Counted from the stretch's first letter, positions 24,114-42,087 are shown. The stretch: 64,000 nucleotides of DNA from an uncultured Pseudomonadales bacterium (GCA_964504585.1 CAZDEW010000004.1:4052-68051); one strand, 5' to 3'. Notes: generated by a model from the sequence alone, not told the origin. Translations and numbers: made by a program.

Positions 24114-24680
24114 GTGAACAAAGCGCTTTTCCTAGACCGGGACGGTGTAATCAATGAAGATCGTGGTTACGTCGTAAAACGCAAAGACTTCGTTTTTATC
24201 GAAGGTATTTTTGAACTGTGCCAGACTGCAAAGCTCAAAGACTATCTGTGCATCGTGGTTACCAACCAATCCGGCATAGGTCGGGGTCTCTACGACGAAA
24301 GTGATTTTCATGTGCTTACCGACTGGATGCAGGAGCAGTTTGATCAAAGCAGCGCAGGCCTGGACGCCGTGTATTTCTGCCCTGATCATCCAACTGAGGG
24401 AAAAGGGAAATATAAAGTCGATACGGAGCGTCGCAAGCCTGGGCCCGGCATGATACTGGAAGCTGCTGCAGACTTTGATTTGTCTCTGGCGGAATCGATA
24501 CTGATTGGCGACAAGGAAACCGATATCGAGGCAGCGCATCGTGCGGGCGTTGGTACAACAGTGAGACTCATGCGCGGCGAACACTCAGCTCAGTCCGCCG
24601 ATGCAACGGCAAGCAACTCAACGGAAACGAAAGCAACGGCAACTATAGTCAATCTGCGTAGCGCCATAGATTTACTCTAA
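24114..24680 (+). CDS. gmhB: D-glycero-D-manno-heptose 1,7-bisphosphate phosphatase
   Basis: HAD motifs FLDRDGVIN, VVTNQSG and GDKETDIEAA. Context is gmhA and hldE. The start is GTG. Confidence 0.85.
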   Translation: MNKALFLDRDGVINEDRGYVVKRKDFVFIEGIFELCQTAKLKDYLCIVVTNQSGIGRGLYDESDFHVLTDWMQEQFDQSSAGLDAVYFCPDHPTEGKGKYKVDTERRKPGPGMILEAAADFDLSLAESILIGDKETDIEAAHRAGVGTTVRLMRGEHSAQSADATASNSTETKATATIVNLRSAIDLL

Positions 24681-24735
24681 GCAGCACCCTTGCTGCTCTT
24701 AGGCAAGAGATTACCTTTATCGTAAAATACACGCC

Positions 24736-25311
24736 ATGATCGATCAAATTAGCAAACAAATATCTCGCTCAATCGAAACCAAAGAAAAGCTTTTACAAGA
24801 TAGTGAAATTCTCGAAGCTGTCGCGGAGCTAGTCAGCTGTTGTCTGGATGCGTTGAAGAGCGGTGGGAAAATAATTTTTTGTGGCAATGGCGGCAGCTTC
24901 GCTGACGCACAGCATCTGTCAGCTGAGTTTACCGCGCGCTTTCTGTTCGACCGAGCTCCGCTCGCCTCCATCGCTCTGGGCACAAACAGCTCGACCATTT
25001 CGGCGATCAGCAATGATTATGGTTATGAGCACGTATTTTCAAGAGAGCTGGAAAGTATCGGTAAAGCAAACGACGTCTTTATCGGGATCAGCACCAGTGG
25101 CAATAGCCCCAATGTATTGGCCGCGATGGAGATCGCGAACAAACTGGAGATGAATGCCGTCTCACTCACAGGTAGCACCGGTGGCAAGCTTGCTGCAATG
25201 GGCCGCTGCATACGAATTCCGTCAGACGACACGGCAAGAATACAGGAATGTCACATCTTGCTGGGCCACATCGTCTGTGAGCTTGTCGAGCACAAGTACT
25301 TTCGCGAATAA
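24736..25311 (+). CDS. gmhA: phosphoheptose isomerase (SIS domain)
   Basis: CGNGGSFADAQHLSAEF and GISTSGNSPNV motifs. Confidence 0.9.
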   Translation: MIDQISKQISRSIETKEKLLQDSEILEAVAELVSCCLDALKSGGKIIFCGNGGSFADAQHLSAEFTARFLFDRAPLASIALGTNSSTISAISNDYGYEHVFSRELESIGKANDVFIGISTSGNSPNVLAAMEIANKLEMNAVSLTGSTGGKLAAMGRCIRIPSDDTARIQECHILLGHIVCELVEHKYFRE

Positions 25312-25338
25312 ACTTGGCAATCTGATCCGGTCACTTTT

Positions 25339-27108
25339 GTGAGTCAGCAACTTACCAACATCACGCGCGCAAAGGGCAATCTCGACGAGGGACCATCCAA
25401 CGTCAGGCCGACTCTGCGGAAAATTTTACAACACCTGTACCCGCAGTCTTTTTTTCTTGGCCTTTCTATCGCCGGCTTCGCCATCTATGCGGTTACCCAG
25501 CCACTCTCTGCGGTTCTTATTGAGTGGCTGATTAAAACACTGGATGGCGAATGGCAGGAAGGCGTGGTCCTGCTCCCGCTTGCCTTTATAGCAGTTGCGG
25601 TGGTGCGTGGTGTCGGCACCTATATGGGTAGCTACTACATTTCGAAAGTATCACAGAGAATGATTGAGAGCATTCGAAAAGACCTGTTCAATAAAATCAT
25701 TCACCTACCCCTGGCAACGTTTGATCAGGCCAAAAGCGGTCGCTTTGTATCGCTGTTTACCTACAATTCTAATTTGATGGCTAACAACGTGGCGAAGTCG
25801 GTAACAGTCGTTGCACAGGAAGGCCTTACTGTCATCGCCCTACTGGCTTATCTTTTCTGGTCAAGCTGGCAGTTAACGCTAGTCTTTCTCCTTATCGTCC
25901 CACCAATCGCCCTGATCGTTAATTACGTCGGCAAGGTGATTCAGTCTTTAAGCAAAGACATACAGAACTCGATGGCCGAGCTAAACAGTACGGTCACGCA
26001 GTCTTTTTCCGGCATAAGACTTATAAAAACGTCTTCGGGTGAAGAACAAACCAAGAAACACTTCGGCAGCATAGCATCTGAAACAAGAAAGCTTGCCCTG
26101 CGCATTAGCAAAGTCAACTCTATTTATACCCCTTCGATGCAGATCCTGATTGCCTGCGCTATGGCGGTACTGGTCGTGCTAGTAATCCGCTTCCACGGCG
26201 AAATGGAAACAGCTGCGTTGATCGCCTATGTGACGGCTGCAGCCTTACTATCAAAGCCCATTCGCTCGCTCAGCAAAGTTCATGTCAATTTGACCAGAGC
26301 CGTGGTCGCTGCGAATGAAGTTTTTGCGTTTATGGAGCTTCCCCCGGAAAAGAATAGTGGAACAGTAATAGCCGATAATATTCAAGGGAATATTGAGTTT
26401 CGCAATGTAGTCCACCGCTATGCCGATGACGGCGAACCCATCTTGAACGACCTCAGCTTCACAATTGGGAGTGGCGAGACCATCGCTTTGGTGGGTCACT
26501 CTGGCGGAGGCAAATCAACCATCGCCAACCTTGTACCGCGGTTTTACAGCCTCGAGTCCGGCGAAATCTTGATTGATAACATCAATATTGAAGAGTACGA
26601 GCTATCTTCGCTGCGGAATCAAATTGCGCTCGTACCGCAAGAGGTGCATCTCTTCAATGCGAGCATTAAAGAAAACATTGGCTACGGCATAGAAGCAGAC
26701 CACGACGATATTGTTGCTGCTGCAAAGAAAGCCAACGCTCATGAGTTTATAAACGACCTCAAAGGCGGCTATGATGCAAGAGTTGGCGATAACGGCGTGT
26801 TGCTGTCGGGCGGTCAGCGACAACGTCTGGCCATTGCGCGAGCCATACTTAGAGACGCGAAAATACTTATACTGGACGAGGCTACTTCGGCGCTCGATAA
26901 CAACTCTGAGCGATTAGTACAGAGCGCACTCGAGGAGCTGCAGTCTGATATAACGACCATAATAATTGCCCACCGGTTAAGTACAATTGAAAGCGCGGAT
27001 CGGATTATTGTTCTTTCGAAAGGAAAAATAGCAGAGCAGGGCGATCATGCCTCTTTAATGGCGATTGACGGATTTTACGCAAGCCTGTTAAAAATGAGTG
27101 CTGACTGA
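25339..27108 (+). CDS. msbA: lipid A export ABC transporter/flippase MsbA
   Basis: 589 aa with an N-terminal 6-TM domain. Motifs are Walker A GHSGGGKST, signature LSGGQRQR and Walker B ILILDEATS. It sits in an LPS context. Confidence 0.88.
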   Translation: MSQQLTNITRAKGNLDEGPSNVRPTLRKILQHLYPQSFFLGLSIAGFAIYAVTQPLSAVLIEWLIKTLDGEWQEGVVLLPLAFIAVAVVRGVGTYMGSYYISKVSQRMIESIRKDLFNKIIHLPLATFDQAKSGRFVSLFTYNSNLMANNVAKSVTVVAQEGLTVIALLAYLFWSSWQLTLVFLLIVPPIALIVNYVGKVIQSLSKDIQNSMAELNSTVTQSFSGIRLIKTSSGEEQTKKHFGSIASETRKLALRISKVNSIYTPSMQILIACAMAVLVVLVIRFHGEMETAALIAYVTAAALLSKPIRSLSKVHVNLTRAVVAANEVFAFMELPPEKNSGTVIADNIQGNIEFRNVVHRYADDGEPILNDLSFTIGSGETIALVGHSGGGKSTIANLVPRFYSLESGEILIDNINIEEYELSSLRNQIALVPQEVHLFNASIKENIGYGIEADHDDIVAAAKKANAHEFINDLKGGYDARVGDNGVLLSGGQRQRLAIARAILRDAKILILDEATSALDNNSERLVQSALEELQSDITTIIIAHRLSTIESADRIIVLSKGKIAEQGDHASLMAIDGFYASLLKMSAD

Positions 27109-27284: not shown

Positions 27285-28157
27285 CTAAGACACAGAATCC
27301 AGTCGCGGCGCTACGGCTTCATAAGGTGCCGCATATAGCAAGCCATCGCTAATGAAATAAATCCAGTTCGAATTGGGCGTTTGCCAGTCGCTGCCATAAC
27401 GCAAGGCTAGGTATTCAGACGATCTCTCGGGTACGTTCACTGTGCACCCCAGAAAACTGTGCGACTTTACCGAGTTGAAATATTTTGCAGGTACAACCCA
27501 GGTATAGGATGCCCAGTGGCGCCGAGCATCTGGATGACTCACAACATCGAAACGGTCAGCCTCTCGACGCGTTGGAATCGCACGAAACCTACGGCGCGCC
27601 CATGCTTTATAGTAGGCACGGTAGAGAAACCGAGCAACTTTGTTATTAAAAAATCGAATGCTCCCCTCTCCCGCGACAGATGCAAGCTTGGAAACGGAAA
27701 GATCGTTTAGATCCAACGCACCCTCTCGCTCAAGCAGCTTATCGGTATGCTTTCTGGCAGCCTCGACATACCAGGTCCCATGGGGCCAAAAGATTGATCG
27801 AGCGAACTTTACTATTTGGGGGGAGCACCAAAAATCACCGTGGCGATAGTAGCAGTGAGCATGAATATCTAAAGAGGGGCGCTTGTCGGCCCATTCCAAA
27901 TTCACGCCTTGCAGCTTGCCCTTATACAACTTCTTCTTAACCAGAATGTCTCGCTCAAGACATTTCTGCTCAAGCATGGCGACACGCTGCTCGTCACAGC
28001 GCAATATACCAAGATCGATATCGCTATCATGAGACAGCAGATCACCACCGCGAATTATACCCAGCAACGTCCCGCTATCGGCAAAACACTCAACATTGCA
28101 TTCGGCCATTATCTGGCTAACAACATTAAGCAACTCTCTGGAGTTCTCAATAGACAC
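27285..28157 (-). CDS. LicD-family phospho(no)transferase (nucleotidyltransferase-fold)
   Basis: 290 aa. The N-terminal pattern CFADSGTLLGIIRGGDLLSHDSDIDLGIL matches the LicD signature (GTLLG..R......D.D.D). It is the last gene of the phosphonate operon, 9 nt after the ADH stop. Confidence 0.7.
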   Translation of the reverse strand: MSIENSRELLNVVSQIMAECNVECFADSGTLLGIIRGGDLLSHDSDIDLGILRCDEQRVAMLEQKCLERDILVKKKLYKGKLQGVNLEWADKRPSLDIHAHCYYRHGDFWCSPQIVKFARSIFWPHGTWYVEAARKHTDKLLEREGALDLNDLSVSKLASVAGEGSIRFFNNKVARFLYRAYYKAWARRRFRAIPTRREADRFDVVSHPDARRHWASYTWVVPAKYFNSVKSHSFLGCTVNVPERSSEYLALRYGSDWQTPNSNWIYFISDGLLYAAPYEAVAPRLDSVS

Positions 28158-28166
28158 TAAACATCC

Positions 28167-29285
28167 TCATCCGCTGAATACATAGTCGATATCTGCTGGT
28201 GTCAGCCTGACGGGATTGTTCCCTAAACGCTGCTGATTAACTGAAGCAATCACCTCATCCAAATCGTAATCGATGCCCGAAAGATCTTGCGTTGTGCCCA
28301 GCTGGCTGATGAGGTCCGCAAGCCAATCAGAGGCTTTCGCATCACCCAAACCAAGTAGCTCGCGCAATTCCCGCATCAGCTCACGAAATCTCTCAGCCCC
28401 CATAGGGTGGGTAATTTGCTCATCAGGAGCTTGCTCATGCACATCAAAAATTCGAGGCAAGGTAAGACCTACAGCAGCGCCATGAGAAACATCATGAAAG
28501 TAAGTGAAATAATAAGAATAAGCATGCGCGGCTGTGGTCTTGCTGATATCAATAGCCCTTCCGGCAAGATTGGCCGCCTCGAGCAAGGACTGTAGGTCTT
28601 GCGGCAACATTGTGTCGATAGACTGTGGTAACAAGAAAGAAAGTTTCTCTATCGCGCTCCGAGCGAAGCCCCGGCTTTCATCAGTCGCCCCATTAGACCA
28701 GAAAGATTCAACAGCCTGGGCCAACGCATCAATCGCGCAAGAAGCGCGCTGTGGGAGTGAGCAGGTCTCGATAAAACGCCCATCCAAAAAAGCCATTGAA
28801 GGACGCAAGATCTGAGAGGCGAGAGAGAATTTTCGGGAGCCCTGGTAGACTACAGCAAAATGGGTAGATTCACTCCCTGAGCCAGCAGTGGTGGGAACAG
28901 CCAGCACCGGGCATAACACGGAATCTATTTGAATTTCTCCCCGCAAGCAGGGTTCAATCTGGCTGTCTTCAAGCGGTGCAAAGCCTGTCATTGCTTTGGC
29001 GAGATCCAGAATCCTTCCACCACCTATCGCAATCACTTGCTGTGGCTTGAAAGCACGAAGCTTAGGCAGCGCCGCACGCACTTCATCAAGTTGCGGCAGC
29101 GAAGAGCTCGACGACACGAGCTCCACTTCAAAGTGCGTGGATAAATCCTCTAGAAGCGTGGAAATTGCCTGACTCTGCGAGGAAGAGGCGCCGACAACGA
29201 TCGCAACGCGACGAATCGCCGAAGCGGAAAGATGCTCTGGAATCTCCGCCGCGCATCCATAGTGACTGAGAATTTGCTGAGCCAT
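28167..29285 (-). CDS. group III iron-dependent alcohol dehydrogenase, probable phosphonoacetaldehyde reductase
   Basis: 372 aa with GGGRILDLAK, PTTAGSGSE and the His cluster HAYSYYFTYFHDVSHG. It lies immediately downstream of PepM and Ppd. The fold is confident; the substrate is inferred from context. Confidence 0.75.
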   Translation of the reverse strand: MAQQILSHYGCAAEIPEHLSASAIRRVAIVVGASSSQSQAISTLLEDLSTHFEVELVSSSSSLPQLDEVRAALPKLRAFKPQQVIAIGGGRILDLAKAMTGFAPLEDSQIEPCLRGEIQIDSVLCPVLAVPTTAGSGSESTHFAVVYQGSRKFSLASQILRPSMAFLDGRFIETCSLPQRASCAIDALAQAVESFWSNGATDESRGFARSAIEKLSFLLPQSIDTMLPQDLQSLLEAANLAGRAIDISKTTAAHAYSYYFTYFHDVSHGAAVGLTLPRIFDVHEQAPDEQITHPMGAERFRELMRELRELLGLGDAKASDWLADLISQLGTTQDLSGIDYDLDEVIASVNQQRLGNNPVRLTPADIDYVFSG

Positions 29286-29298
29286 AAAGTGTGCCGAA

Positions 29299-30414
29299 TC
29301 AACTACCCATGAATCGTGGTTTCAGTGAAGTCATCGCTTCTTTCGGGCGCCCTATTCCTTCCCGGTTTCCTGGGTTCACCAGAATCTCGACAAAAGACGT
29401 CCCTGAACTTTCGCGGGCCTCGGTTACCGCCTGTTCAATCTCCACAGCACTTGAAACGCGACGGGAGAAACTATAGCCGCACATTTTAGCAAACTCCGTA
29501 AAATCAAAATCAGGACCGACGGTCTCCTGACCTCCAACAGAGTCGTGCACACCATTATTGAATAAAATATGCACAAACCCTGCGGGCGCCTGCTTTCCGA
29601 TTGCCACCAGCGAACCCAGGTGCATCAACGCAGCCCCGTCGCCATCCAAACACACCACAGGCGCCCCGTCGAGCGAGGCCGCTACACCAAGCGCGATGGT
29701 GGAAGCGTGGCCCATACCACCCACGGTCATAAAAGCACGAACATCGAGCAACTGATTGGTATTTTCATAGAGTTCTCGCGAAAGCATGCCGGTTGTTGAA
29801 ACGATCCTCACTTTCGGATCAATGGCTCCAAGCGCCACCCGCAAAGCCTCTTCCCGCGACATCAATGTCTCAGAGAGGCAGCGCTTAGGTTCGATCTGGC
29901 TCTTTAGCGAACCCTTAGGTACCAGAATCGCCACGGGGGTGGACTGAGATTTTGCAACATCGACAAGCTCATCAACCATATCATCGATTTCCCCATCGTC
30001 AGAGCAAACTACTCGATATGGGATGTCAAGACTGTCCAGAATAGACTCGGTAATTCGCCCCTGATGAACGTGCTGTGGCTCATCTTTCGTACCCGGCATT
30101 GCACGCCACCCAATGATCAAGACCATCGGAATTGAGTACACTTCCGGGCTAGCAAGCGATACAAGCGGATTGATCGCGTTACCCAGTCCGGAGTTTTGCA
30201 TGTATACCGCTGAAATCTCTCCAGTTGCAAGATTGTGTCCGATTGCATGAGCCACGGCACCCCCTTCGTTTGCAGCGACAACATGCCTATCCTCGCCGAA
30301 AACTTCGGCAGCCGTGACGCAAAAGCCCGACAACACGGAATCTGGCACCCCGACCAGCCTGGTAACGCCTCTCGAAAGCAGGCAGCTCGCGAGCTTCTCA
30401 CTCTCAATCGTCAT
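29299..30414 (-). CDS. ppd: phosphonopyruvate decarboxylase (ThDP-dependent)
   Basis: 371 aa with LVGVPDSVL, ANEGGAVAHAIG, YMQNSGLGNAINPL, GGMGHASTIALG and LDGDGAALMHLG. It starts 3 nt after the PepM stop. Confidence 0.85.
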   Translation of the reverse strand: MTIESEKLASCLLSRGVTRLVGVPDSVLSGFCVTAAEVFGEDRHVVAANEGGAVAHAIGHNLATGEISAVYMQNSGLGNAINPLVSLASPEVYSIPMVLIIGWRAMPGTKDEPQHVHQGRITESILDSLDIPYRVVCSDDGEIDDMVDELVDVAKSQSTPVAILVPKGSLKSQIEPKRCLSETLMSREEALRVALGAIDPKVRIVSTTGMLSRELYENTNQLLDVRAFMTVGGMGHASTIALGVAASLDGAPVVCLDGDGAALMHLGSLVAIGKQAPAGFVHILFNNGVHDSVGGQETVGPDFDFTEFAKMCGYSFSRRVSSAVEIEQAVTEARESSGTSFVEILVNPGNREGIGRPKEAMTSLKPRFMGS

Positions 30415-30417
30415 CTT

Positions 30418-31719
30418 TTATCTCGGCGGCAACAGTTTAAGGATCTGCGAGATTGACATGATCTCGCTATTGGCCTCGTGTGAACGCGTGTGCTCAAGTA
30501 TGCTCTCGGCTACGCTGACCATGGCGGGATAGGCCGCGCGCAACAGGTGATTCGCATAAATGACAATTGATACTCCCGCCTCACACAATTCGGCCTCAGT
30601 TACAGTGTTATAGCTAGAGGGTACTGCTATTAGCGGCTGCGTGTAGCCGCGCTTGCGGAATTCAGCGGCAAACTCCAGAACTTCCGCTGGATCCGATTTC
30701 GCACTGTGTATCATGACCCCATCAGCCCCGGCTTCAATGTAAGCCTCTGCGCGCTGCATGGCATCGTCTTGGCCTTTGTCGAGGATAAGGCTTTCGATCC
30801 GAGCAAAGAACATGAAATCGTGCCCTACCTGCGCACGCTTTGCAGCGCGAATTTTGTCGCAGAAGTCCTCTATAGAGGCCTGCTCCTGCTTTACTGTTGT
30901 GCCAAACAAAGAGTTTCGCTTGGGACCAACTTTATCCTCAAGTACAACAGCCGATACACCATGGCTCTCCAATTCGTAAACCAGAAACGGTATGTTGTCT
31001 ATGCTTCCGCCCGAATCGCCGTCATAAATAATTGGAATAGCAGTAACTTCACACATATCCCGAATCACTGACAATCTTGCACCAGTGTCTACAACTTCGA
31101 TATCGGGACGCCCCCGTGAAGTCGCGTCGGTGAGTGAGCTGCACCATAGCGCATCGAAGGCGCGCACTTCTTTGCCAACGGTATGTTTTGCAGTTCCAGC
31201 AACCAGAGCGCTTAGCCCGCTGTGTGCCTCGAGAACCCTTACAGTATCTTTCGCATCGAGCAGCCGGCGAAGAAGTCCGCGGCGAAAGTCCGCGGTAATA
31301 CCACGCTCGGAAATACTCTCAATCAGCTGCGTTGAGGAAACACCCGCTGTGTAGGGCACATCTACGACCTGACCGCCCCACTTACTGATAACGTCAATAA
31401 CGTTACGACGTGTATCAGCTTGCACCCCTTCCTTCCAGTCATCGCCGTGCACGACGAAATCAGGCTTCAGACTCTCGAGGTTTGCTGTGTAATCGAGCGT
31501 CTCTTGTGGGATGACCTGCGCTACTCCCTTGATGTTCTCGACGACCGTCTTCCGCTCCTCATAGGGCATAAGCGGCAACCGCTTGTACTGGGCAATGGCA
31601 CGGTCGGTAAGCAAGCCAACCGTCAGCTCACCCAGATCACGAGCATGTTTAATGATATTAATGTGCCCGTGATGCAGTACATCCGCACAAACACCCGCGT
31701 ATACCTTTGGTTTTGTCAT
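30418..31719 (-). CDS. bifunctional cytidylyltransferase / phosphoenolpyruvate mutase (Fom1-like fusion)
   Basis: The N-terminal ~135 aa is TagD/ECT-like ([41 protein letters not shown]). The C-terminal domain is a PEP mutase with the diagnostic [10 protein letters not shown] block (30910-30939). I prefer the ATG at 31719, preceded by GGAGAAACT, over the track start at 31770. Confidence 0.85.
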
Positions 31720-32211
31720 AGTTTCTCCGAAGATTTTCCCTGAGCCCGATGGGCACTGAAGAGCAAACACCTGTAAAAACGATTATCTATCTGTGGGATC
31801 GAGCCAATACTGAGACTCGATTGGAAAGCGAGGGTTAACTCGTGGCATATATGCGTTAAGACGGCAGTCGCCTGATGCAACCACTACCCAGCTGAATATC
31901 TTTTAATCAGTAAGATTTTATGCCGTGGAAGTAAGCGTTTATCGAGCCAGCCCCACAGGTCAACATGGTGTGACGAAGCCGCGAATGCTACTCGATATAA
32001 AAAACCATAACAATTGTAGATCGGCTATAAAAATCCACGGTTTAGGCAGCTATATTGCACTGTGAAGAATTGCTTATCGGAGCAGCATTTGCGTGCATTT
32101 TGTAAAGCGGCAAAGAGACCGTAAGCAGGACCAAAACACTTTGGATATTTAGCGGATAACGTCGCTGGCAAGTCAGCTAATTGTGGAAGTAAACTGGAGA
32201 GAGGTCGGCCA

Positions 32212-34815
32212 TCAGAAAAAGATAGCTTCTTTTAGAAAATCTTCTAACTCGCCATAACCGAGCAGCGCATCAAGCACTCGGTGTCCCACCTCGCCCTTAC
32301 TCGAAGAAATGGGGCGTATTTCCCCATCAGTAACCTTGGCAACCAACTGCGCGAACTTTGCGTCACGCTTGTCGTCTCTGGCGTGACTCAATACTATTTC
32401 CGCACGACCACCACGCACTTTTTCGATAAGTAAAAGAGCAGCTTTTAGCAAAGCTTTTGACTTCTGTTTTTTAAAGCGTGGGAAACGACCGCCAATAGAC
32501 AAAACTCGTCGGACCTTAAAACGCAGTCCGGACACGATTGCCATATAAGCGCCAGCGCTACTTCCAATAGTTCTCAGCTCTGCATGCTCTTCTAAAATTT
32601 TTTGTTTACCAAGCCATCGAATAACCTGTCGTTCACTGGATCCTAACGAAGGAACACCGTCGGAATAGTTCTCGCCAAGTGGCTCCGCTATGATTAAGAA
32701 ATTGAACCTGGACGCGTCAGCGCACTGAAGCAGGGCGAAATTCGGGATAATCAATCGTCGTCGCCCACGCATCGCAAAACAAATCACCAGAACTTTTTTG
32801 GAAGAGTCGCCACCACCATCAAACAAGGTCACCGTTGGCGCAATCTTTCTGGGCTGATAACGCTGGAAGCTCTCCTCGCCAACGCTCATCAACACTGAGG
32901 AAACACTGGTGAACCATAAATCCAGCGCATTTTGAAACTTCTCGTTTTGCACATCGACAAGATCTTTACGAGAGTGCTCATGCGCAAGAAAAGCTAGCTG
33001 CTCAGGTGCCAACCGATGCTCAAAAGTTTGCAAAGCTTTATTGAGCTGGCCTATTGAGCTGCATAGCCTGAATACCCTTCTGAAAGTTTTTACCAGCTGA
33101 GTATAGTGATCATCTAGACGTAACCGCTCTTTAAATCCTTCAGGGAGAATTTCACCGCCAACCCTGCCGGTTTCTGCACCCGCTGAAATAGTCGCCACCA
33201 ACTGACTTAACAGCCTATAATCAGCAAACTCGCCGGGATCTATCACCACATCAAACTGCATTTCAACAAGAATAAGCAGCTCCATCTGCGTCATAGAATC
33301 CATACCAAGTGTTCGCAGTTTTACATCTTCTTCACCCGCCTCAAATGCATCTAGACTGTCGCCTAGGAAGTCCATGACTGACGGCAAACCTCTGATAGCC
33401 TCACACAGTCTCGTGCGGACATCACCGAACCGCCCGCTAATAGCCAAAACCTCTTGCCGGTTAACCTTACCTGTCTCCCCTCTCGGCACCTTGTTAACCA
33501 GAATGAACTGCTTGGGGGATCGAGCACCAGCACGTGCGCTAACGAACCTTTGGATTCGCGAGAGTTTTGGCGGACTCGCATATTGATCAAACGCTAATAT
33601 TGCAATCGGAACGTCACCGTGAATACGCGATTTTCTGGGTACGACGGCCGCATCAGCCACGCCAGGATACTCCATGATGAGTGACTCAAGCTCCTGTGGA
33701 TAAATGTTCATACTGTTGAACACAAACATGTCATCCGAGCGGCCAAGAATAAATAGACTACCGGTCTGGTCGATTCTTGCGATATCCCCTGTACAATACC
33801 AACCATCTTTCACACTCTTTTGATAAACCTCCTCAGCACCCAAATAGCCTTCGAACATGCCTTCACCACGCACGAATAAAACCCCGGGCTGGTCAGGCTC
33901 GACCACAACGCCAGCAGCATCTCGGCACTCAAGCTGAAGACCATTCAAAGCGCGACCAACGGACTCGGACTCAACAAACTCGGAAGTGTGCGCAAATGCG
34001 ATTGCTCCCGTCTCGGTAGTTCCGTATCCGAAGCGCAGATTCGGCGTTAGGGAATCTGTTAAAAGTTTTCTCGTCTCGGGTGATACATGCGAACCACCGA
34101 TTTTCAAACCTATACTTTGTAATCGATGAGCATCAGCATGACGAACCAGAGATCGCGCCTGGTACTCAGATACATGAAGCGTCTCTACATTCAAGCTAAT
34201 GCACTGATCCAGCAACTCATTACTGTCAAGAAAAACATTAGTAGCTCCACGGGCCATCACATAAAACCTGTGCCGCTTTGAAAAATTATGCTCAACGGAT
34301 GCGATACAAGCGAATCTTTCGTGCTCGTTATCGACATGCCTATGTGCCTGAGCGATCAGCCCAGCGCTACTGTGAACAACAATCTTCGGCTTTCCCGAGG
34401 TGCCGGACGTAGAAAACAGTAGTTGTGCGTTGCCGAGATCGCCGACATGCGTATTATCCGGAACAGTCCCAGAGAAACCCGAGGCCAACTGTTCCACTAA
34501 AAAAAAACGAGTGCCAGCCGACTCGAACACTGAAGTATCAAAGGCCATCTCAAAAGTAGGAATCGTAAAAGTTGTCGCCTCCAATCGCATACCAGCTAAA
34601 CAAATAATTAAGTGTTCGATGTCGTTGGCGCAGCGAATACCCATGACTGCCGCGGAGGTAACACCCAGAGACAATAATTCATTGGCCTCTGCCTCGACCA
34701 TTGCAGCAAGCTCCGAGTAAGAAATCGATCTCTCAACTGAAACCAGAGCATCCCGGTCGGGGGTAGACAGAGCCTGTTGATACAATAATGAAACGATATT
34801 TTTAGGGCGTTGCAT
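32212..34815 (-). CDS. tridomain adenylation - carrier (T/PCP) - alpha/beta-hydrolase-like enzyme
   Basis: 867 aa. Adenylation motifs are LLFSTSGTSGKPKIVVHS, GYGTTETG, WYCTGDIARIDQTGSLFILGRSDDM and PRGETGKVNRQE. The carrier motif LGMDSM has its Ser codon at 33295-33297. The C-terminal ~300 aa carries a nucleophile elbow GSSAG (Ser codon 32557-32559), then candidate Asp (HARDD) and His (EVGHRV). Confidence 0.8.
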   Translation of the reverse strand: MQRPKNIVSLLYQQALSTPDRDALVSVERSISYSELAAMVEAEANELLSLGVTSAAVMGIRCANDIEHLIICLAGMRLEATTFTIPTFEMAFDTSVFESAGTRFFLVEQLASGFSGTVPDNTHVGDLGNAQLLFSTSGTSGKPKIVVHSSAGLIAQAHRHVDNEHERFACIASVEHNFSKRHRFYVMARGATNVFLDSNELLDQCISLNVETLHVSEYQARSLVRHADAHRLQSIGLKIGGSHVSPETRKLLTDSLTPNLRFGYGTTETGAIAFAHTSEFVESESVGRALNGLQLECRDAAGVVVEPDQPGVLFVRGEGMFEGYLGAEEVYQKSVKDGWYCTGDIARIDQTGSLFILGRSDDMFVFNSMNIYPQELESLIMEYPGVADAAVVPRKSRIHGDVPIAILAFDQYASPPKLSRIQRFVSARAGARSPKQFILVNKVPRGETGKVNRQEVLAISGRFGDVRTRLCEAIRGLPSVMDFLGDSLDAFEAGEEDVKLRTLGMDSMTQMELLILVEMQFDVVIDPGEFADYRLLSQLVATISAGAETGRVGGEILPEGFKERLRLDDHYTQLVKTFRRVFRLCSSIGQLNKALQTFEHRLAPEQLAFLAHEHSRKDLVDVQNEKFQNALDLWFTSVSSVLMSVGEESFQRYQPRKIAPTVTLFDGGGDSSKKVLVICFAMRGRRRLIIPNFALLQCADASRFNFLIIAEPLGENYSDGVPSLGSSERQVIRWLGKQKILEEHAELRTIGSSAGAYMAIVSGLRFKVRRVLSIGGRFPRFKKQKSKALLKAALLLIEKVRGGRAEIVLSHARDDKRDAKFAQLVAKVTDGEIRPISSSKGEVGHRVLDALLGYGELEDFLKEAIFF

Positions 34816-34954: not shown

Positions 34955-36160
34955 TCACCGCGGAATCTTTTTTGAGTATCTTAGATACGTAGAAAACAAT
35001 CTCGCTATACGCTGCTTAAAACTGGTACGAAGATAAAGCCACCACCAAGGCAGATGTCTAACTGATTGGTAACGTTCTTCAATTAAGTTCGCCTGCAAAC
35101 TCAAAGATTCGCCCCGACTATCAAACACAGCATAATCTAGCAGCTTGCGACGATCCTGCTGCTTGTCATCGGTCGCCAAAGCTTGTCGTACAAAAGGTAG
35201 CAAGTCCTCGGAATGATCGATTACAGTCCCCGCCTGCCATACATACGTATTATCAGTAATCTGATTACCGGCCTTGTACCGTCCCGGCGCAGGGTTGGCG
35301 AAAAGAATCGGACGGTCAAAATGCAACCATTCGTAGCATACCGATGAAATGTCGGAGATCATGGCATCGCTTGCTGCCATATAGGGTGTGATGTCATCAT
35401 CAATCACAACCTTCACGTTTGCTTCATAACCCAGCTCTTCTATTAAATCTTTGACCCGATCATAGATGTCGATTTTGTCCGAAACCAACTTGCTATGAAA
35501 CTTCATAATTACATTGTAGTGACTGCCAAGCTGTCTCACGATTTCAAGAGACCAAAGTTGGATCGAGCTTTCACCATAGAGTGAACGCTCACCTAGCTTC
35601 ATACTAGTCACCGAGCTATCCCAAGTTGGCGCGTATAGAATGACCTTCCTATCCTCATCGAACAAACTTACTGGTGTAAGGCTTCCCTTATAAAATTCAT
35701 CAAATTTGGGATAACCTACTAGCTTCCAGCTATTGATATACGGCAACGTACCTGCAAGCTTTGCTTTATCTACAGCTTTCTGCCCGGGGAACAGGACAAG
35801 GTCGTAACAGGTGAGTCGAGCTGACTCTATATATCGCTTGTCTGACAAGCCCCCATGAAAAACCTGAACTGCTACACCACAGTAAAGAAGATGAAAACTT
35901 GGATAAACAATCAACCTCAATCTCAACTTAAACGCCAGCTTCCTTGCCTCTGCTCTATTTTCTACTAGCCGTATGTCCAGGCAATAATCCGAATATTTTT
36001 CATTAGCGCGGGCAAAAATACTGGTGTTATCGGTAATGATAACCCCACCAAGGCGTGGATATAGCCTGATAACTGGAGGCAGGTGTTGGATGTTCGAAGA
36101 CAAGTAGTAGCCAATTTTCTTATCCATACTTGCACTGGCCGACACTTCAGCATTCATCAT
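34955..36160 (-). CDS. TagB/TagF-family CDP-alcohol phosphotransferase (glycerophosphotransferase-like)
   Basis: 401 aa. ILYAPTWDSS and MAASDAMISDISSVCYEWLHFDRPILF match the Glyphos_transf pattern (YAPT[WF]R and D.LI.D.SS..F.....P). Confidence 0.7.
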   Translation of the reverse strand: MMNAEVSASASMDKKIGYYLSSNIQHLPPVIRLYPRLGGVIITDNTSIFARANEKYSDYCLDIRLVENRAEARKLAFKLRLRLIVYPSFHLLYCGVAVQVFHGGLSDKRYIESARLTCYDLVLFPGQKAVDKAKLAGTLPYINSWKLVGYPKFDEFYKGSLTPVSLFDEDRKVILYAPTWDSSVTSMKLGERSLYGESSIQLWSLEIVRQLGSHYNVIMKFHSKLVSDKIDIYDRVKDLIEELGYEANVKVVIDDDITPYMAASDAMISDISSVCYEWLHFDRPILFANPAPGRYKAGNQITDNTYVWQAGTVIDHSEDLLPFVRQALATDDKQQDRRKLLDYAVFDSRGESLSLQANLIEERYQSVRHLPWWWLYLRTSFKQRIARLFSTYLRYSKKIPR

Positions 36161-36248: not shown

Positions 36249-37115
36249 CTAGCCACTGATCAGATTCAACTTCTCTCTTATTATTGTCGAACTAACGCTT
36301 GGCGTGTAGTCAAAGTAGATTACTTCACAACTAGTTTTTGGGTACTTGCCTTTCCAGTCGGAGCCTACGGATATCGCATCGATACCGAACTTATCTACCG
36401 CTGCTTGTTTATTTTTGTCGTGTTGCGGCACGACTTTATCCACATATGATATCTGCTCTACGATTGCTGCGCGCTCCTCATAGGGAATGACAGGTAGACG
36501 CCCTTTATCTTTTAAAATCAGATCGTCAACTGAAACGCCCACTATCAGTTCGTGACAAAGCTCTTTAGTGCGTCGCAAAATATTTAAATGGCCGTGATGG
36601 AATATGTCGAAACAACCCGTAGTGTACATCCTGTTGAATCGCTTATTCGGCTGCTGCTGCACGGCTACTGCGGCAAACTCCTTCTTCAGGACAGCCTTCA
36701 TCGCAGCGTGTTCTTCATCGCTCATCTCCAGCGACGTGGATAAATCACAGGGGCCCGGCCAACTGCGATCGAAAAATTCACGGCCTTGCAGCTTTTGAGC
36801 AGCACTATGACGCGGAAAGATATGGAAATGAACGTGCGGATCAACCATCATAAGCATGAGATAATTCGTCTTCTCATAACCCAATCTGCCCTTAAAAACC
36901 GCCTCGATAATCTTTACCAAATTTCCCTGTTCAATAACTGCGTCGGGGGAAATCTGGTCATACGCCGTGACATTTTCTTTGCAAACGAGAACAATAGAAC
37001 CGAGCGTCACCTGTTTGGGTCGATACAAAACCTCCCAAAAACGAGATGAAAAAATCGTCGATTCAGGAAAACCGAATTTGTCTAATGTGTCCTGGACATC
37101 CATAAAAGTGCTCAA
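36249..37115 (-). CDS. HIT-domain / TagD-like cytidylyltransferase fusion protein
   Basis: 288 aa. The N-terminal HIT histidine triad is PHVHFHIFPR (36825-36839). The C-terminal half is colinear with glycerol-3-phosphate cytidylyltransferase: TTGCFDIFHHGHLNILRR (HxGH at 36588-36599), VGSDWKGKY, TPSVSSTIIRE. Confidence 0.75.
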   Translation of the reverse strand: MSTFMDVQDTLDKFGFPESTIFSSRFWEVLYRPKQVTLGSIVLVCKENVTAYDQISPDAVIEQGNLVKIIEAVFKGRLGYEKTNYLMLMMVDPHVHFHIFPRHSAAQKLQGREFFDRSWPGPCDLSTSLEMSDEEHAAMKAVLKKEFAAVAVQQQPNKRFNRMYTTGCFDIFHHGHLNILRRTKELCHELIVGVSVDDLILKDKGRLPVIPYEERAAIVEQISYVDKVVPQHDKNKQAAVDKFGIDAISVGSDWKGKYPKTSCEVIYFDYTPSVSSTIIREKLNLISG

Positions 37116-37326
37116 GCAAACCCCACGCTGCGAAGCGGAATTTTACAATATAATGGCGAAATCCAACAAGCAAAGCCCTGCCCCACACGCCCGCTACAAG
37201 CAGCTTTGGTAACTTTTGCGGTGTTCAACGGAAGTTGCAGGATCAACTTCCCTATTGAGAGCCATGCCCGTAAAGTCCGTGCGCAGAGCATCACTTCAGA
37301 ACCGTATTCCTGATGCAAAGGCAATC

Positions 37327-38448
37327 ATGCAAACTCCGATAACCGATCAACCCCTTACCATCTATCTGGACACACCCAATCTCTACTATCTCCCTCAGTA
37401 CGAGCCGTTGATCAATGAAGCAATCCGAAGGGGCGCCAACTATAAAGTTGTCCTGTATCAAGACAAAAATCAGCTCAACACTCAGCGATCATGTCTCGCG
37501 AAGCATGCTGACAAGCTGATTTTAGTGGATGATGCAGAACAGGCTTCAAAGCTTTACGCGAAAGACAGACCTAACTGGGTGTTTTTTGGCAATAGCTTTG
37601 ATTATCTGGAGCTACTCCACGCGGACACGCATACCGCACAGCTAGGGCACGGCATCGGCCCAAAGCCAAGCTACTATCATAAATCTCGCACGGCGATGAC
37701 CGTCCGATTTATCGAAGGCGCACTAAGGCTCTCAACCATCCGCAAGCTCTATCCTGAACAAAACTTTGTTCAGGTTGGCTTTTGTAAGCTGGATCCCTTA
37801 TTCAACAGCAAGGCGGAAATGCAGCCACCTGAAAATTACAAGTTGCCGAAGGGCAGAACCACTTTACTTTATGCGCCAACTTTCAAACCGAGTTCGCTTG
37901 AGTGCTTTCCCGATAACTGGCCAGAGCACTTCGAAGAAACCAATATCTTGGTCAAGCCGCATCACTTTACTTATGAGAGAAAGCGCTATGAAAAGCAGCG
38001 CAGGAAGCTGGAAAAATGGTCTCGCTTTCCGAACGTCCACATTGCCAGCAAAGACGCCCTATCCTTGTTGCCGTACATGAATATTGCGGATCTGATGATT
38101 AGCGATGCCTCATCCGCAATTTTCGAATTTGCAGCATTAGACAAGCCTATCGTGCTGTGTAATTTCTTTAAGCTTCCATGGCACTATCGAGGTCCATTTA
38201 AATATCGTTATAACCGACGCTTCGTACAGGACGCTGTAGCCTATGAATCGCTTGCGCCGTTCGCCAGGAATTTTCAGGAGATGCACCGCCTAGTCGGCGA
38301 AGAACTAAAAGCACCCGAACGATATGCGCCGGCGAGACAGGCGTACACGCGAGATCATGTTGGAGACACCGACGGCAGAGCATCTGCCCGGATCCTCGAT
38401 TATATTGAGAACTACTCGGTAAACTCAGCTTCAGATCGAGCGAGTTGA
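37327..38448 (+). CDS. second TagB/TagF-family CDP-alcohol phosphotransferase
   Basis: LLYAPTFKPSS and MNIADLMISDASSAIFEFAALDKPIVLC. The start is uncertain: the track gives 37216, with ATGs at 37264 and 37327, and I use 37327 (MQTPITDQ). The 3' end overlaps the convergent GT9 gene by 18 nt. Confidence 0.68.
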   Translation: MQTPITDQPLTIYLDTPNLYYLPQYEPLINEAIRRGANYKVVLYQDKNQLNTQRSCLAKHADKLILVDDAEQASKLYAKDRPNWVFFGNSFDYLELLHADTHTAQLGHGIGPKPSYYHKSRTAMTVRFIEGALRLSTIRKLYPEQNFVQVGFCKLDPLFNSKAEMQPPENYKLPKGRTTLLYAPTFKPSSLECFPDNWPEHFEETNILVKPHHFTYERKRYEKQRRKLEKWSRFPNVHIASKDALSLLPYMNIADLMISDASSAIFEFAALDKPIVLCNFFKLPWHYRGPFKYRYNRRFVQDAVAYESLAPFARNFQEMHRLVGEELKAPERYAPARQAYTRDHVGDTDGRASARILDYIENYSVNSASDRAS

Positions 38449-39492
38449 AGAAAGCCCTATACCCTCACCGGCGACAACGCGATCCAGCATACGACAGACA
38501 TCATCCAGCTCAATCAGCGCCATCAAGTGGTCTCCTTTCGCCCGTTCGCCCCAACTTGGCGTAGTGTTGCTTCTGGTCTGAGACGCGATCGCATCGTGAT
38601 AAACACTCACCACATACTCCCTGTATGTATAGGGACCCGTCCGCTCGGGGTTACTATGGGCATAAAGACCCACCACAGGCGTCCCTTGTGAGACAGCCAT
38701 GTGCGCCGGGCCCGTGTCAGGGCAAACCAGAACACTTGCAAGACGCAGAAAATAGAGCATCTGAGACAGGGAGAATTTACCACTAACATTTTCGACAGGC
38801 ACTTTGCACGCCGCGAGAATTTGCTCGACAAATTCCAACTCTCTTGCCGCGGGGCCGGAGCATACATAAACATGAAAACCCCTTTCATGAGCGTATGAGG
38901 CTAGCGCCGCATACCGTTCCGGCAACCAGTTGCGCTCGAAATTCGATGCCACGGGCGCGATAACAAGACATGGTGCGGTACCCTGATGGAATTGCTCGAC
39001 GTACTGTGCATCTTTCGAATCCAGCGGAAAGCTCCACCGCAACTGAAAGTCTGGCAAACCCAGTGCTCGCGCGAATGCTTTAAAGCCGTCTACAACATGG
39101 GGGCGCTCAGGCATATCACACCGGGAATTGACGACTAGACCGTGTAACTCTTTGGACAGATGTCGCGGGAACCCGATTTTCTTTCGAGCCCTGACCAGCA
39201 AAGCCAGCGCATTTGCCCGCAGCGAGAGCTGCATATGCAGCAGCACATCAAAAACCTCATTGAGCTCTCTACGGAGCTTTAGGTATTCAGAAACGCCACG
39301 TGACTTGTCAAAAACGTAGAAGTCGATGCCGGGCAAGCTACTAACCAGCGCATACTCCGCCTTACCAATGATCCATGTTATGCGAGCATGCTTTTTTACG
39401 CGTTGAATTTCCTGCACCACGGCAACGGCATTGCAGACATCGCCAATGGCCGATAACCTAAGAATGCAAATTGACTCAGATGGCGCCGTCAT
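38431..39492 (-). CDS. LPS heptosyltransferase (glycosyltransferase family 9, WaaC/WaaF-like)
   Basis: 353 aa with ILRLSAIGDVCNAV at the N-terminus and VCPDTGPAHMAVSQGTPVVGLY near the C-terminus. It lies 17 nt downstream of hldE. Confidence 0.85.
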   Translation of the reverse strand: MTAPSESICILRLSAIGDVCNAVAVVQEIQRVKKHARITWIIGKAEYALVSSLPGIDFYVFDKSRGVSEYLKLRRELNEVFDVLLHMQLSLRANALALLVRARKKIGFPRHLSKELHGLVVNSRCDMPERPHVVDGFKAFARALGLPDFQLRWSFPLDSKDAQYVEQFHQGTAPCLVIAPVASNFERNWLPERYAALASYAHERGFHVYVCSGPAARELEFVEQILAACKVPVENVSGKFSLSQMLYFLRLASVLVCPDTGPAHMAVSQGTPVVGLYAHSNPERTGPYTYREYVVSVYHDAIASQTRSNTTPSWGERAKGDHLMALIELDDVCRMLDRVVAGEGIGLSSTRSI

Positions 39493-39509
39493 TCCTTTGT
39501 AACCGCTCG

Positions 39510-40967
39510 CTACTTCTTTATCTTGCTGATCAGGTTAGTGGTTGACAAGCCCTCGACCAAATCAACAATCGCTACAACACCACCATAAGACTCCACCAGA
39601 TCAGCGCCAACGATGTTCTCACGCTGATAATCCCCGCCTTTGACTAACACATCAGGGCGTATTTCGGAAATGAGTTCCAGAGGTGTGTCGTCACCGTCAT
39701 CGCCAAAGCAGAGAATCCAATCCACACAGCGCAAGCCGCGCAAGACCGCTCGACGGTTCTGGAGAGAATTAACTGGCCTGTCACTGCCTTTTAAGCGCGA
39801 AATACTGCTATCGGTATTCAATCCGAGTACCAGCCGGTCGCCAAGCTTTCTCGCCTCCTCCAGATACGCGATATGCCCTGCGTGCAATATATCGAAACAG
39901 CCGTTGGTGAAGACTATTCGCTCTCCATTCTGACGGGCAGCCATAATCTGGAGTTTCACAATCTCCTCGTTGCCTGGGCCTGCAGAATGGGCCATCTCCT
40001 GAGTCATGTAAGCCTGAACAAGCTCAGGCAGTGTGACCGCCGCGGCACCCAAACGGGATACAACCAGCCCCGCTGCTACGTTTGCATAGCGAGCCGCACC
40101 CGCAAGATTCTCTCCAAGGCAAGTCATAATCGCCAGTGTAGCGATGACGGTGTCACCGGCGCCAGTCACATCACTAATTTCCTTGGCGCTGACACCCAGG
40201 TCGAGCTTATCGACCTGGCCATCGGTGTCGCTTGCACTAATGATTGACATGCCTTGCTCACTCCGCGTGAGAACCATCGAATAAATGGCATAGTTGTCGA
40301 GCATGTCGCTAGCCGATTGCAGGATGTTCGCCTCTGTATCGACGACGCCGCCGGCGTTTACAAACTCAGAGCGATTGGGAGTAATTACCGTTGCACCACG
40401 ATAGATAGAGAAATCGTGCGCCTTGGGATCAACAAGAACCGGTTTTTCATGATCCTTTGCGAGTGCGATCATCTCTGTGACCAAGCGCAGGGTGCCCTTC
40501 TCATAATCTGAAAATACTATGCAATCATAGTCTTTCATCGAAACTTCAAATGCGTCGCGAATAGACTGCGCATGTGAAGGCTGGAATTTCTCCTCCTCAT
40601 CGAGTCGTAGAATCTGCTGCCCTCGGCTAATCACTCGGGTCTTGGTGATCGTCGGCAGATCGTTACACACAAGAAGTTCCGCCTTTATCCCAAGCTCTGA
40701 AACAAGGCCGCGCATTGCTTCGGCACTACCGTCATTACCGACCATCCCCAGTAAGCCAACTTGCGCGCCCAGTGAGGCGAGGTTTCGCGCAACGTTTGCA
40801 GCACCCCCTAAGCGGCATTCAAAACCTTCGACCTTGACGACGGGTATTGGCGCCTCTGGAGAAATTCTCTGCGTATCGCCGGTATAGTACTGGTCGAGCA
40901 TGACATCGCCTACGACGAGCACTCTGACGCCGGCTGCCTTCTGCATGAGGGGAGAATCAAAATTCAT
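39510..40967 (-). CDS. hldE: bifunctional D-beta-D-heptose 7-phosphate kinase / heptose 1-phosphate adenylyltransferase
   Basis: 485 aa. The N-terminal half is ribokinase-like (GGAANVARN, DVTGAGDTV). The C-terminal half is a nucleotidyltransferase (TNGCFDILHAGHIAYLEEAR). Confidence 0.93.
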   Translation of the reverse strand: MNFDSPLMQKAAGVRVLVVGDVMLDQYYTGDTQRISPEAPIPVVKVEGFECRLGGAANVARNLASLGAQVGLLGMVGNDGSAEAMRGLVSELGIKAELLVCNDLPTITKTRVISRGQQILRLDEEEKFQPSHAQSIRDAFEVSMKDYDCIVFSDYEKGTLRLVTEMIALAKDHEKPVLVDPKAHDFSIYRGATVITPNRSEFVNAGGVVDTEANILQSASDMLDNYAIYSMVLTRSEQGMSIISASDTDGQVDKLDLGVSAKEISDVTGAGDTVIATLAIMTCLGENLAGAARYANVAAGLVVSRLGAAAVTLPELVQAYMTQEMAHSAGPGNEEIVKLQIMAARQNGERIVFTNGCFDILHAGHIAYLEEARKLGDRLVLGLNTDSSISRLKGSDRPVNSLQNRRAVLRGLRCVDWILCFGDDGDDTPLELISEIRPDVLVKGGDYQRENIVGADLVESYGGVVAIVDLVEGLSTTNLISKIKK

Positions 40968-41329
40968 AGTGCGGGAGGGGAGTAATTATCCTGTTTAAAA
41001 TATGCGAATAGCCGCCGTAGTCACCGCTGCCACAAAGCCGCGAATAGCTTTTGCACGTAGCAAAGCACCCCCAATCTTACCACTTTCTAAGAACCATCGG
41101 ATGTCATGATGCCGTTAATCTAACCGCAGAATTAGCAGGTCAATACCCCAGACCACGCCAGCGAAATTACCCCAGCAAGCATGTCGCAGCGGGCATCCAA
41201 ATCCCGGACGGTTAGGCTTGTTTCAGGGCTCCCTATAAGCAGGCCTGTAACCCCGGCATAAGAACGAAGATGATTCGAGCCTTCGTATAGTACAATGACA
41301 GCCTTAGAATTCTGACCTCCAGACAGAAC

Positions 41330-42031: not shown

Positions 42032-42041
42032 ATAAACTCCT

Positions 42042-42079
42042 GCCCTTAGCCCTTAGCCCTTAGCCCTTAGCCCTTAGCC
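42042..42079. repeat. perfect heptanucleotide tandem repeat (GCCCTTA) x5 plus a partial copy
   Basis: Read directly. It fills most of the 56-bp gap between the convergent kdkA (stop 42031) and waaA (stop 42088). Confidence 0.95.
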
Positions 42080-42087
42080 GATGGTCG

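Follow-up and report, generated by a model that had tools for sequence, protein, structure and literature searches.

A 64,000-nucleotide stretch of DNA from an uncultured Pseudomonadales bacterium (GCA_964504585.1, CAZDEW010000004.1:4052-68051), hereafter called the window, by which the whole 64-kb stretch is meant, originates from marine-biofilm metagenomes. It carries on the minus strand four co-directional genes across 27285-31719, separated in the order of transcription by gaps of 3, 13 and 9 nt (Table 1). The first three genes, the trio, encode a fusion of a cytidylyltransferase (CTase) with a phosphoenolpyruvate (PEP) mutase, a thiamine diphosphate (ThDP)-dependent phosphonopyruvate decarboxylase (Ppd) and an iron-type alcohol dehydrogenase (ADH), and the fourth encodes a divergent protein of the LicD family. 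That these open reading frames (ORFs) are not due to chance is indicated by their length, by strong matches to curated families and by a gene order that recurs in dozens of unrelated genomes. We consider it likely that the four genes represent one operon, which builds a phosphonate head group, 2-hydroxyethylphosphonate (HEP), and hands it over to a cell-surface glycan. An earlier note on this DNA, made from the sequence alone, had described the trio with exact boundaries, but does not list the LicD-family gene with which the operon ends.

Table 1. Genes and features of the predicted phosphonate operon and its surroundings; positions are counted from the first letter of the window.
Feature	Position	Strand	Evidence and remarks
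Cytidylyltransferase-PEP mutase fusion, Fom1-type bifunctional	30418..31719	-	433 aa; PF01467 + PF13714, TIGR02320, PDB 5X3D
Phosphonopyruvate decarboxylase (Ppd), ThDP enzyme	29299..30414	-	371 aa; TIGR03297, PF02776 + PF02775
PhpC-type Fe/Zn alcohol dehydrogenase (ADH), predicted phosphonoacetaldehyde reductase	28167..29285	-	372 aa; PF00465 + PF25137
Divergent LicD-family phosphotransferase, last in operon	27285..28157	-	PF04991, D-x-D-x-D, FKRP fold match
Non-coding spacer upstream of the fusion gene, 492 nt	31720..32211	.	no ORF; GC 45.5%
Adenylation and carrier domain (A-T) protein	32212..34815	-	867 aa; PF00501, PF13193, PF00550
TagF-like 1, CDP-alcohol phosphotransferase family	34955..36160	-	PF04464 78.1 bits
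Second cytidylyltransferase, HIT-like N-terminus and TagD-like C-terminal domain	36249..37115	-	288 aa; PF01467 67.2 bits
TagF-like 2, phosphotransferase	37216..38448	+	PF04464 74.8 bits
Flanking gmhB, gmhA, msbA	24114..27108	+	TIGR00213 170 vs 149.6 bits; TIGR02203 617 vs 602; gmhA best matches sub-cutoff
Flanking GT9 heptosyltransferase, hldE, Kdo kinase, waaA, lpxL	38431..44356	.	PF01075; HldE 590.3 vs 521 bits; KdkA 200 vs 142; LpxL/P 319 vs 298; WaaA best matches sub-cutoff

The fusion protein starts at the ATG at 31719, 7 nt downstream of a GGAG, in agreement with the public gene call on the contig; the mechanically delimited ORF extends to a GTG at 31770. Pfam places PF01467 at residues 11-134 and PF13714 at residues 150-408, residues 1-138 (about 31306-31719) constituting the CTase and residues about 149-433 the PEP mutase. 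The PEP mutase part scores above the equivalog cutoff of TIGR02320 (374.3 vs 319.55 bits, residues 150-431), matches PEP mutases in the PDB (5UNC, E 4e-50; 1M1B, E 1e-42) and displays the motif EDKxxxxxNS, which is specific for PEP mutase (Ppm) (PMC6697681), at residues 261-270 ([10 protein letters not shown], codons 30910-30939). In the CTase part, the HxGH motif is present as HHGH at residues 16-19 (codons 31663-31674). The architecture proposed in the earlier note, an N-terminal TagD-type cytidylyltransferase fused to a PEP mutase, was thus recovered with its coordinates and both motifs in place.

The CTase domain is identical to the crystallised cytidylyltransferase domain of Fom1 (5X3D) in 85 of 138 positions (61.6%, E 4.8e-56). 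The Fom1 domain is reported to convert HEP and cytidine triphosphate (CTP) to cytidine monophosphate-activated HEP (CMP-HEP) (PMC6697681). When 84 CTase domains are ordered by identity to the window domain, Fom1 takes rank 31 and so lies within the span of identities shown by the trio-linked domains. Its identity to other trio-linked domains reaches 77.5%, with the nearest one encoded in a Stackebrandtia metagenome-assembled genome (MAG); the fosfomycin enzyme is accordingly an ordinary member of the CTase clade. Homology to Fom1 and the near-universal ADH partner of such fusions (see below) point to HEP as the probable substrate of the window domain. As a peculiarity of the window protein, residue 11 (31687-31689), a few positions ahead of HxGH, is Cys; in an alignment of 85 CTase domains, at least 95%, including Fom1, possess Ser there, so that GMSAD becomes GVCAD in the window.

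The second gene, an intact ORF which begins 3 nt after the fusion gene, has been assigned as Ppd with a score above the equivalog cutoff of TIGR03297 (416.7 vs 312.5 bits), with both ThDP domains, PF02776 and PF02775, present. The third gene, an intact ORF located 13 nt after Ppd, encodes the group III iron-dependent ADH that the earlier note had recognized. The nearest database relatives of the ADH, at 35-41% identity, are named phosphonoacetaldehyde reductase (NCBI). The protein is 37% identical to the corresponding ADH of Stackebrandtia nassauensis (E 2e-60), and solved generic Fe-ADHs match with E 1e-27 or weaker. In PhpC, the metal is bound by Asp191, His195, His260 and His274, of which the His195 position may be Gln, and the substrate is contacted by Lys157, Thr256, Tyr264 and Arg349, with Tyr264 strictly maintained among PhpC enzymes, while sulfoacetaldehyde reductase has Phe in its place (PMC13576164). 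The window ADH carries K152, D186, Q190, T250, H254, Y258, H268 and R353, which constitutes a PhpC-type signature set. Except for position 190, occupied by Gln in 57 and by His in 20 sequences, all these residues are invariant in an alignment of 77 trio-linked ADHs; in the sulfoacetaldehyde reductase SarD (6JKO), Phe takes the place of the Tyr, and the position of residue 190 is occupied by Gln. In addition, pepM and ppd adjoin the gene, the synteny by which PhpC is defined in PMC9381506. The ADH is consequently predicted to be a PhpC-type phosphonoacetaldehyde reductase, a prediction which builds on signature residues, synteny and the S. nassauensis protein as a proxy for PhpC, FomC and DhpG, for none of which a solved structure is present in the PDB. 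In two related loci Ppd and ADH are naturally fused into one polypeptide (L076, 11314-13479, 721 aa; L085, 2205-4442, 745 aa), in both cases directly after the CTase-PEP mutase fusion.

The four proteins can be arranged into a consecutive pathway. The PEP mutase domain would turn PEP into phosphonopyruvate, which Ppd would decarboxylate to phosphonoacetaldehyde, thereby drawing the unfavourable equilibrium of the first reaction forward; the PhpC-type ADH would subsequently reduce phosphonoacetaldehyde to HEP and the N-terminal Fom1-type CTase domain would convert HEP and CTP into CMP-HEP and pyrophosphate. Eventually, with CMP-HEP as the donor, the LicD-family enzyme would pass the HEP-phosphonyl group on to a hydroxyl group of the acceptor, with release of CMP, a step modelled on LicD, which works with CDP-choline, and on FKRP, which works with CDP-ribitol. 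Synthesis of HEP by the operon appears very probable, the formation of CMP-HEP is assumed with good confidence, and the use of CMP-HEP as a donor for a surface glycan is probable as well, if a little less firmly so. The earlier note had likewise predicted phosphonoacetaldehyde, HEP and CMP-HEP as consecutive products, and as far as sequence can tell, the equivalog scores of PEP mutase and Ppd, the complete set of PhpC signature residues and the similarity to Fom1 bear this out. The note had also considered CMP-HEP an end product and not an antibiotic intermediate. CMP-HEP is better regarded as the activated donor, with a HEP ester on a glycoconjugate as the end product.

When an alignment of four fusions was used to query genomes, each species being represented by one, a relative of the fusion was detected in at least 456 species. 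The best 80 of these at least 456 relatives are 54-59% identical and derive from Bacteroidota, Ignavibacteria, several proteobacterial classes, SAR11, SAR86, spirochaetes, Elusimicrobia, actinobacteria and three archaea. The comparison shows the window fusion to belong to a large and coherent group, predicted to be of the HEP type. The flat range of identity over very distant phyla suggests wide horizontal spread together with strong constraint. The archaeal MAGs, assigned to Methanoregula (L023), Woesearchaeota (L057) and Methanosphaera (L071), encode the fusion with 55-57% identity, with Ppd and ADH beside it wherever the contig allows. Overall, out of 83 related loci, 77 have Ppd and ADH adjoining the fusion as judged by tblastn; of the six exceptions, five are on contigs which end within 1.6 kb, leaving a single informative locus (1/78) without the ADH. 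An ORF-based count of the trio (69/83) is an undercount caused by spurious overlapping ORFs, such that the tblastn count stands. Sequence comparison establishes to which families the four enzymes belong and that their genes co-occur in a conserved manner.

The wider neighbourhoods of the trio, searched over whole loci with profile hidden Markov models (HMMs), point to the fate of the phosphonate. The two commonest neighbour families are TagF-like proteins (PF04464), encoded in 40 of 84 loci, and LicD-like proteins, encoded in 25 of 84; one or the other or both occur in 60 loci, both in five and neither in 24, many of the latter being short contigs. Mutual exclusion of the two families had been considered, as BLAST clustering within 6 kb found them together in 0 of 83 loci, and was rejected upon the five joint occurrences found by the profile HMMs. 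Next in frequency are sugar-nucleotide epimerases and dehydratases, glycosyltransferases of the GT2 and GT4 families, short-chain dehydrogenases/reductases, a methyltransferase and NeuB, a collection which characterizes the trio loci as surface-polysaccharide loci. The presence of TagF-like or LicD-like genes in 60 of the 84 loci marks these two families as candidate HEP transferases. A membrane protein of approximately 1000 aa is also encoded near the trio in L012 (8820-11861), L029 (18216-21239) and about ten other mostly Bacteroidales loci. It combines an N-terminal YidC/60KD_IMP domain with a weakly matching sulfatase/alkaline-phosphatase-type C-terminal region and often directly follows a TagF-like gene positioned after the ADH gene (e.g. 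in L012); a role for this protein in transferring the phosphonate unit outside the cytoplasm is conceivable.

In the window, the gene joined to the trio encodes the LicD-like protein, 9 nt downstream of the ADH gene and in the same orientation. The protein is recognized by PF04991 with 33.7 bits (gathering cutoff 22.6), and its D44-x-D46-x-D48 motif is invariant or nearly so in the 40 nearest representatives, 39 of which are PF04991 proteins. An AF2 model (predicted local distance difference test (pLDDT) 84.4, predicted template modelling score (pTM) 0.83) retrieved FKRP as all of the top 13 matches with Foldseek (E 8e-7 to 2e-5, probability 1.00), at a query-normalised TM-score of 0.42-0.46; the best match is FKRP crystallised with CMP and CDP-ribitol (E 8e-7). 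The LicD-like protein is the most evident transferase candidate and is somewhat favoured as the HEP transferase of the operon.

Several points weigh against a pathway that ends with HEP transfer by the LicD-like protein. The choice of substrate by the CTase and by the LicD-like enzyme is deduced from homology and context, and the view is confined to the 64-kb window of an uncultured genome. As the query alignment was built from ADH-linked loci, the sample is biased in favour of fusions similar to those linked to an ADH, and it is consequently not shown that all PF01467-Ppm fusions are linked to HEP. The best NCBIfam model for the ADH is TIGR03405 (phosphonate-associated Fe-ADH), with 144.9 bits against a cutoff of 423.7. 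Ten other trio-linked ADHs tested have the same best model and all stay below its cutoff (148-335 bits), which indicates that the model covers only part of the functional group; the shortfall was therefore dropped as evidence against the PhpC assignment. The LicD-like protein is highly divergent, with four matches found in a word-indexed search versus 2556 in an exhaustive search, and it contains an insertion of approximately 80 aa (residues about 120-200) compared with a typical LicD of 220-270 aa, which is predicted to be helical with low confidence (pLDDT 52-70). Finally, S. nassauensis, the one experimentally known producer of a HEP-glycan, encodes two TagF-like proteins just upstream of the trio, and no LicD gene occurs within the 21 kb that were inspected.

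The last point favours an alternative in which one or both TagF-like enzymes are the HEP transferases, with CMP-HEP replacing CDP-glycerol, and the LicD-like protein serves the product of the second cytidylyltransferase. TagF-like proteins are the most frequent neighbours of the trio and follow the ADH directly in 18 loci, and the closest relatives of TagF-like 2 among the fetched loci are encoded immediately upstream of the fusion in L030 and L033 of Bacteroidota (E 1e-51). On the other hand, in the window it is the LicD-like gene that is joined to the trio, an arrangement directly after the ADH found in ten related loci, while the two genes of the TagF type are found at a distance of 3-6 kb, in one case on the opposite strand, beside a TagD-like cytidylyltransferase of their own and in a block with a GC content lower than that of the trio. 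We regard this alternative as rather unlikely, with TagF-like 1 being retained as a candidate for an enzyme that uses either CMP-HEP or a second CDP-activated donor.

It is very unlikely that HEP or CMP-HEP is only an intermediate, which MpnS, HEPD, a Fom3-like methylase or other enzymes encoded elsewhere would process to methylphosphonate, hydroxymethylphosphonate or a small-molecule phosphonate. Such a route gains from the fact that just 64 kb of the genome are visible and that CMP-HEP is indeed such an intermediate in the fosfomycin pathway (PMC6697681). However, Pfam scans of all window ORFs of at least 150 aa detected no class V/III aminotransferase, radical-SAM or cupin-type enzyme, and neither Fom3, the radical-SAM methylase, nor Fom4, the HppE epoxidase, by which a fosfomycin cluster is defined, occurs within the 64 kb. 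For the ORFs scanned, the statement of the earlier note that the window contains no 2-aminoethylphosphonate (AEP) transaminase, Fom3-like radical-SAM enzyme or HEPD/MpnS/HppE-type oxygenase is therewith borne out. Moreover, the families scanned among the common trio neighbours are polysaccharide enzymes and transferases, the operon terminates in a transferase gene within a lipopolysaccharide (LPS) locus, and the abundance of phpC in ocean metagenomes amounts to 64-76% of that of pepM, with mpnS and hepD each below 1.5% in surface communities (PMC9381506). That AEP, made by a transaminase encoded elsewhere, is the head group activated by the CTase, with the ADH performing a side or salvage activity, is highly improbable: no biogenic phosphonate is more common than AEP, and some AEPT-encoding neighbourhoods also contain PF01467-Ppm fusions (PMC8942020), but it is an ADH and not a transaminase gene that follows Ppd after 13 nt, 77 of 78 informative loci keep the ADH there, two loci have it fused to Ppd, the sole aminotransferase of the window is IlvE, and the AEP-activating enzymes so far characterised belong to another nucleotidyltransferase family, PF12804 (PMC6697681).

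With respect to the acceptor of HEP, the genomic setting is informative, as the operon is located inside an LPS core/lipid A locus. On one side lie gmhB, gmhA and msbA; beyond the fusion gene follow the A-T protein, TagF-like 1, the HIT/TagD-like cytidylyltransferase, TagF-like 2, the GT9 heptosyltransferase, hldE, the Kdo kinase gene, waaA and lpxL. LPS genes flank the trio also in L005 (LptB, LptA-like, KdsD-like) and L019 (HldE homologue). The position between msbA/gmhAB and heptosyltransferase/hldE/kdkA/waaA/lpxL makes the LPS core the most likely acceptor, an assignment that we nevertheless put forward only tentatively, the odds being slightly against it; alternatively, a glycerol-phosphate unit placed on the LPS core by the TagF-like enzymes and the second cytidylyltransferase may receive HEP. 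In either case, transfer would take place on the cytoplasmic face before MsbA flips the molecule, as all enzymes are predicted to be soluble and the donors to be nucleotide-activated. Hydrophobic stretches of a length sufficient to span the membrane were found neither in the LicD-like protein and TagF-like 2 nor in the second cytidylyltransferase and the A-T protein, which fits with a cytoplasmic modification prior to export by MsbA.

Between msbA and lpxL (38431-43344), the Kdo kinase gene adjoins waaA, and the GT9 heptosyltransferase is the sole glycosyltransferase besides. Such a gene content suggests that the core is short and its Kdo phosphorylated, with further core genes possibly located elsewhere in the genome. 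The genes for TagF-like 2 and the heptosyltransferase are convergent, and their 3' ends share 18 nt (38431-38448). Between tatC and gmhB, on the minus strand, a reprolysin-like (M12B) zinc metalloprotease of 590 aa is encoded (21901-23673), which public gene calls split into two genes (380 and 205 aa).

At its upstream end the operon is bounded by the 492-nt spacer, in which its promoter presumably lies. In the spacer no ORF, no Rfam family and no convincing sigma-70 match was found, and its folding is indistinguishable from that of shuffled sequences (z -0.05); in the window as a whole the Rfam scan gave zero matches and the promoter and terminator scans showed no excess over shuffles. From the spacer to TagF-like 2 (31720-38448), including the genes for the A-T protein, TagF-like 1 and the second cytidylyltransferase, GC is 44-49%, as compared with a window mean of 51.6% and 52-53% for the trio; this transferase block looks compositionally foreign and the trio does not. 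The second cytidylyltransferase, which matches TIGR01518 below the cutoff (92.7 vs 165.4 bits), probably supplies CDP-glycerol or a similar donor. Its N-terminus contains a histidine-triad motif, HVHFHIF, at residues 94-100, with a sub-threshold match to the Pfam HIT family (E 0.0084). The C-terminal domain of the A-T protein, of approximately 320 aa, gave no Pfam match at E up to 1 and contains a GSSAG reminiscent of the nucleophile elbow of serine hydrolases; an AF2 single-sequence model of the protein (pLDDT 34) was discarded.

The earlier note had further proposed that TagF-like enzymes extend HEP or that the A-T enzyme esterifies it. Both remain speculation, the link to TagF gaining support from related loci including that of the HEP-glycan producer S. 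nassauensis. As HEP keeps a free hydroxyl, glycerol-bridged or repeating HEP-phosphonate units are conceivable: the LPS inner core would bear a C-P compound, the TagF-like enzymes would treat CMP-HEP as an analogue of CDP-glycerol and build such units, and the A-T protein would acylate or aminoacylate the chain. We judge this scenario improbable, yet if true it would represent a phosphonate counterpart of teichoic acid on a Gram-negative lipid A-core.

In comparison with known systems, the module itself is not new, but already known and very widespread in bacteria and archaea. Nucleotidyl activation is the rule in phosphonate tailoring (PMC6697681), and in marine surveys LicD-type (LPS choline-phosphotransferase) genes and glycosyltransferases near pepM, aepY and phpC have been read as evidence for phosphonate-ester synthesis (PMC9381506); neighbourhoods of pepM, aepY and phpC with LicD-type genes are regarded as phosphonate-ester makers also in PMC6697681 and PMC8942020. 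HEP-type Ppm neighbourhoods made up 8.5% of 434 (PMC8942020). The window shares with these marine and HEP-type neighbourhoods the three core genes, the LicD-type gene and the glycosyltransferases; an insertion into waa/lipid A genes or a combination of HIT-CTase with an A-T protein finds no mention in PMC9381506 and PMC8942020.

The fosfomycin pathway of Streptomyces (Fom1/Fom2/FomC) proceeds through the same four steps from PEP to CMP-HEP with the same domain fusion. It differs by Fom3, which is a B12 radical-SAM enzyme, and Fom4 (HppE), both absent from the window, where CMP-HEP is predicted to be consumed by a transferase rather than methylated and hydrolysed. In the Lic pathway (LicC/LicD) and in PntC-type tailoring with CMP-AEP, as here, the head group is cytidylylated and a LicD-family enzyme moves it to a surface glycan with release of CMP (PMC6697681); there, however, the activating enzyme is of the PF12804 type and the head group is phosphocholine or AEP, as opposed to PF01467 and presumptive HEP in the window. 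FKRP and fukutin, the eukaryotic CDP-ribitol transferases, provide the best structural match to the LicD-like protein (6KAL, 6KAM; E about 1e-6) and a chemistry that releases CMP, but the sequence identity is 12-13%, donor and acceptor are different and the query-normalised TM-score is only 0.45. In the phosphonate literature cited here, neither transfer of a phosphonate by a LicD-family enzyme nor an enzyme that places HEP on glycans has been described.

The closest known relative is the locus of S. nassauensis. For this organism, and for Glycomyces spp., an exopolysaccharide bearing HEP is on record (Yu et al. 2014, as cited in PMC8942020, PMC13576164 and PMC12723261), and a HEP conjugate was purified from the exopolysaccharide of S. 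nassauensis. The S. nassauensis block comprises two TagF-like genes, an IspD-like cytidylyltransferase gene and the genes for the fusion, Ppd and ADH. The trio has the same order as in the window, with proteins 56.6%, 46.6% and 36.6% identical to those of the window. Next to it, as in the window, are a pair of TagF-like genes (PF04464) and another cytidylyltransferase gene, and HEP is the final head group. The abstract by Yu and co-workers reportedly describes a HEP mono(2,3-dihydroxypropyl) ester, a lead which would connect glycerol with HEP. Unlike in the window, the S. nassauensis host is Gram-positive, the acceptor is the exopolysaccharide, LicD is missing from the stretch examined, the second cytidylyltransferase is of the IspD/PF12804 instead of the HIT-TagD type and CDP-alcohol phosphatidyltransferases are present; the window, on its side, is set in LPS core/lipid A genes and possesses the extra A-T protein. 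Particular to the window is this LPS core/lipid A position, from which the hypothesis of an LPS core modified before flipping by MsbA derives. Possibly the comparative result, with its pointer to TagF-like and LicD-like enzymes as HEP transferases, is the more useful output. Cultured carriers of the trio, Rheinheimera soli, Bowmanella denitrificans JCM 13378, Brumicola blandensis W409, Aliiglaciecola sp. SL4, Vibrio kasasachensis and Roseovarius aestuarii, make a test of the transferases practical. To the known module the window adds one compact example of four genes with the transferase last, and its locus is a Gram-negative counterpart of the S. nassauensis locus whose operon includes a LicD-like gene in addition.

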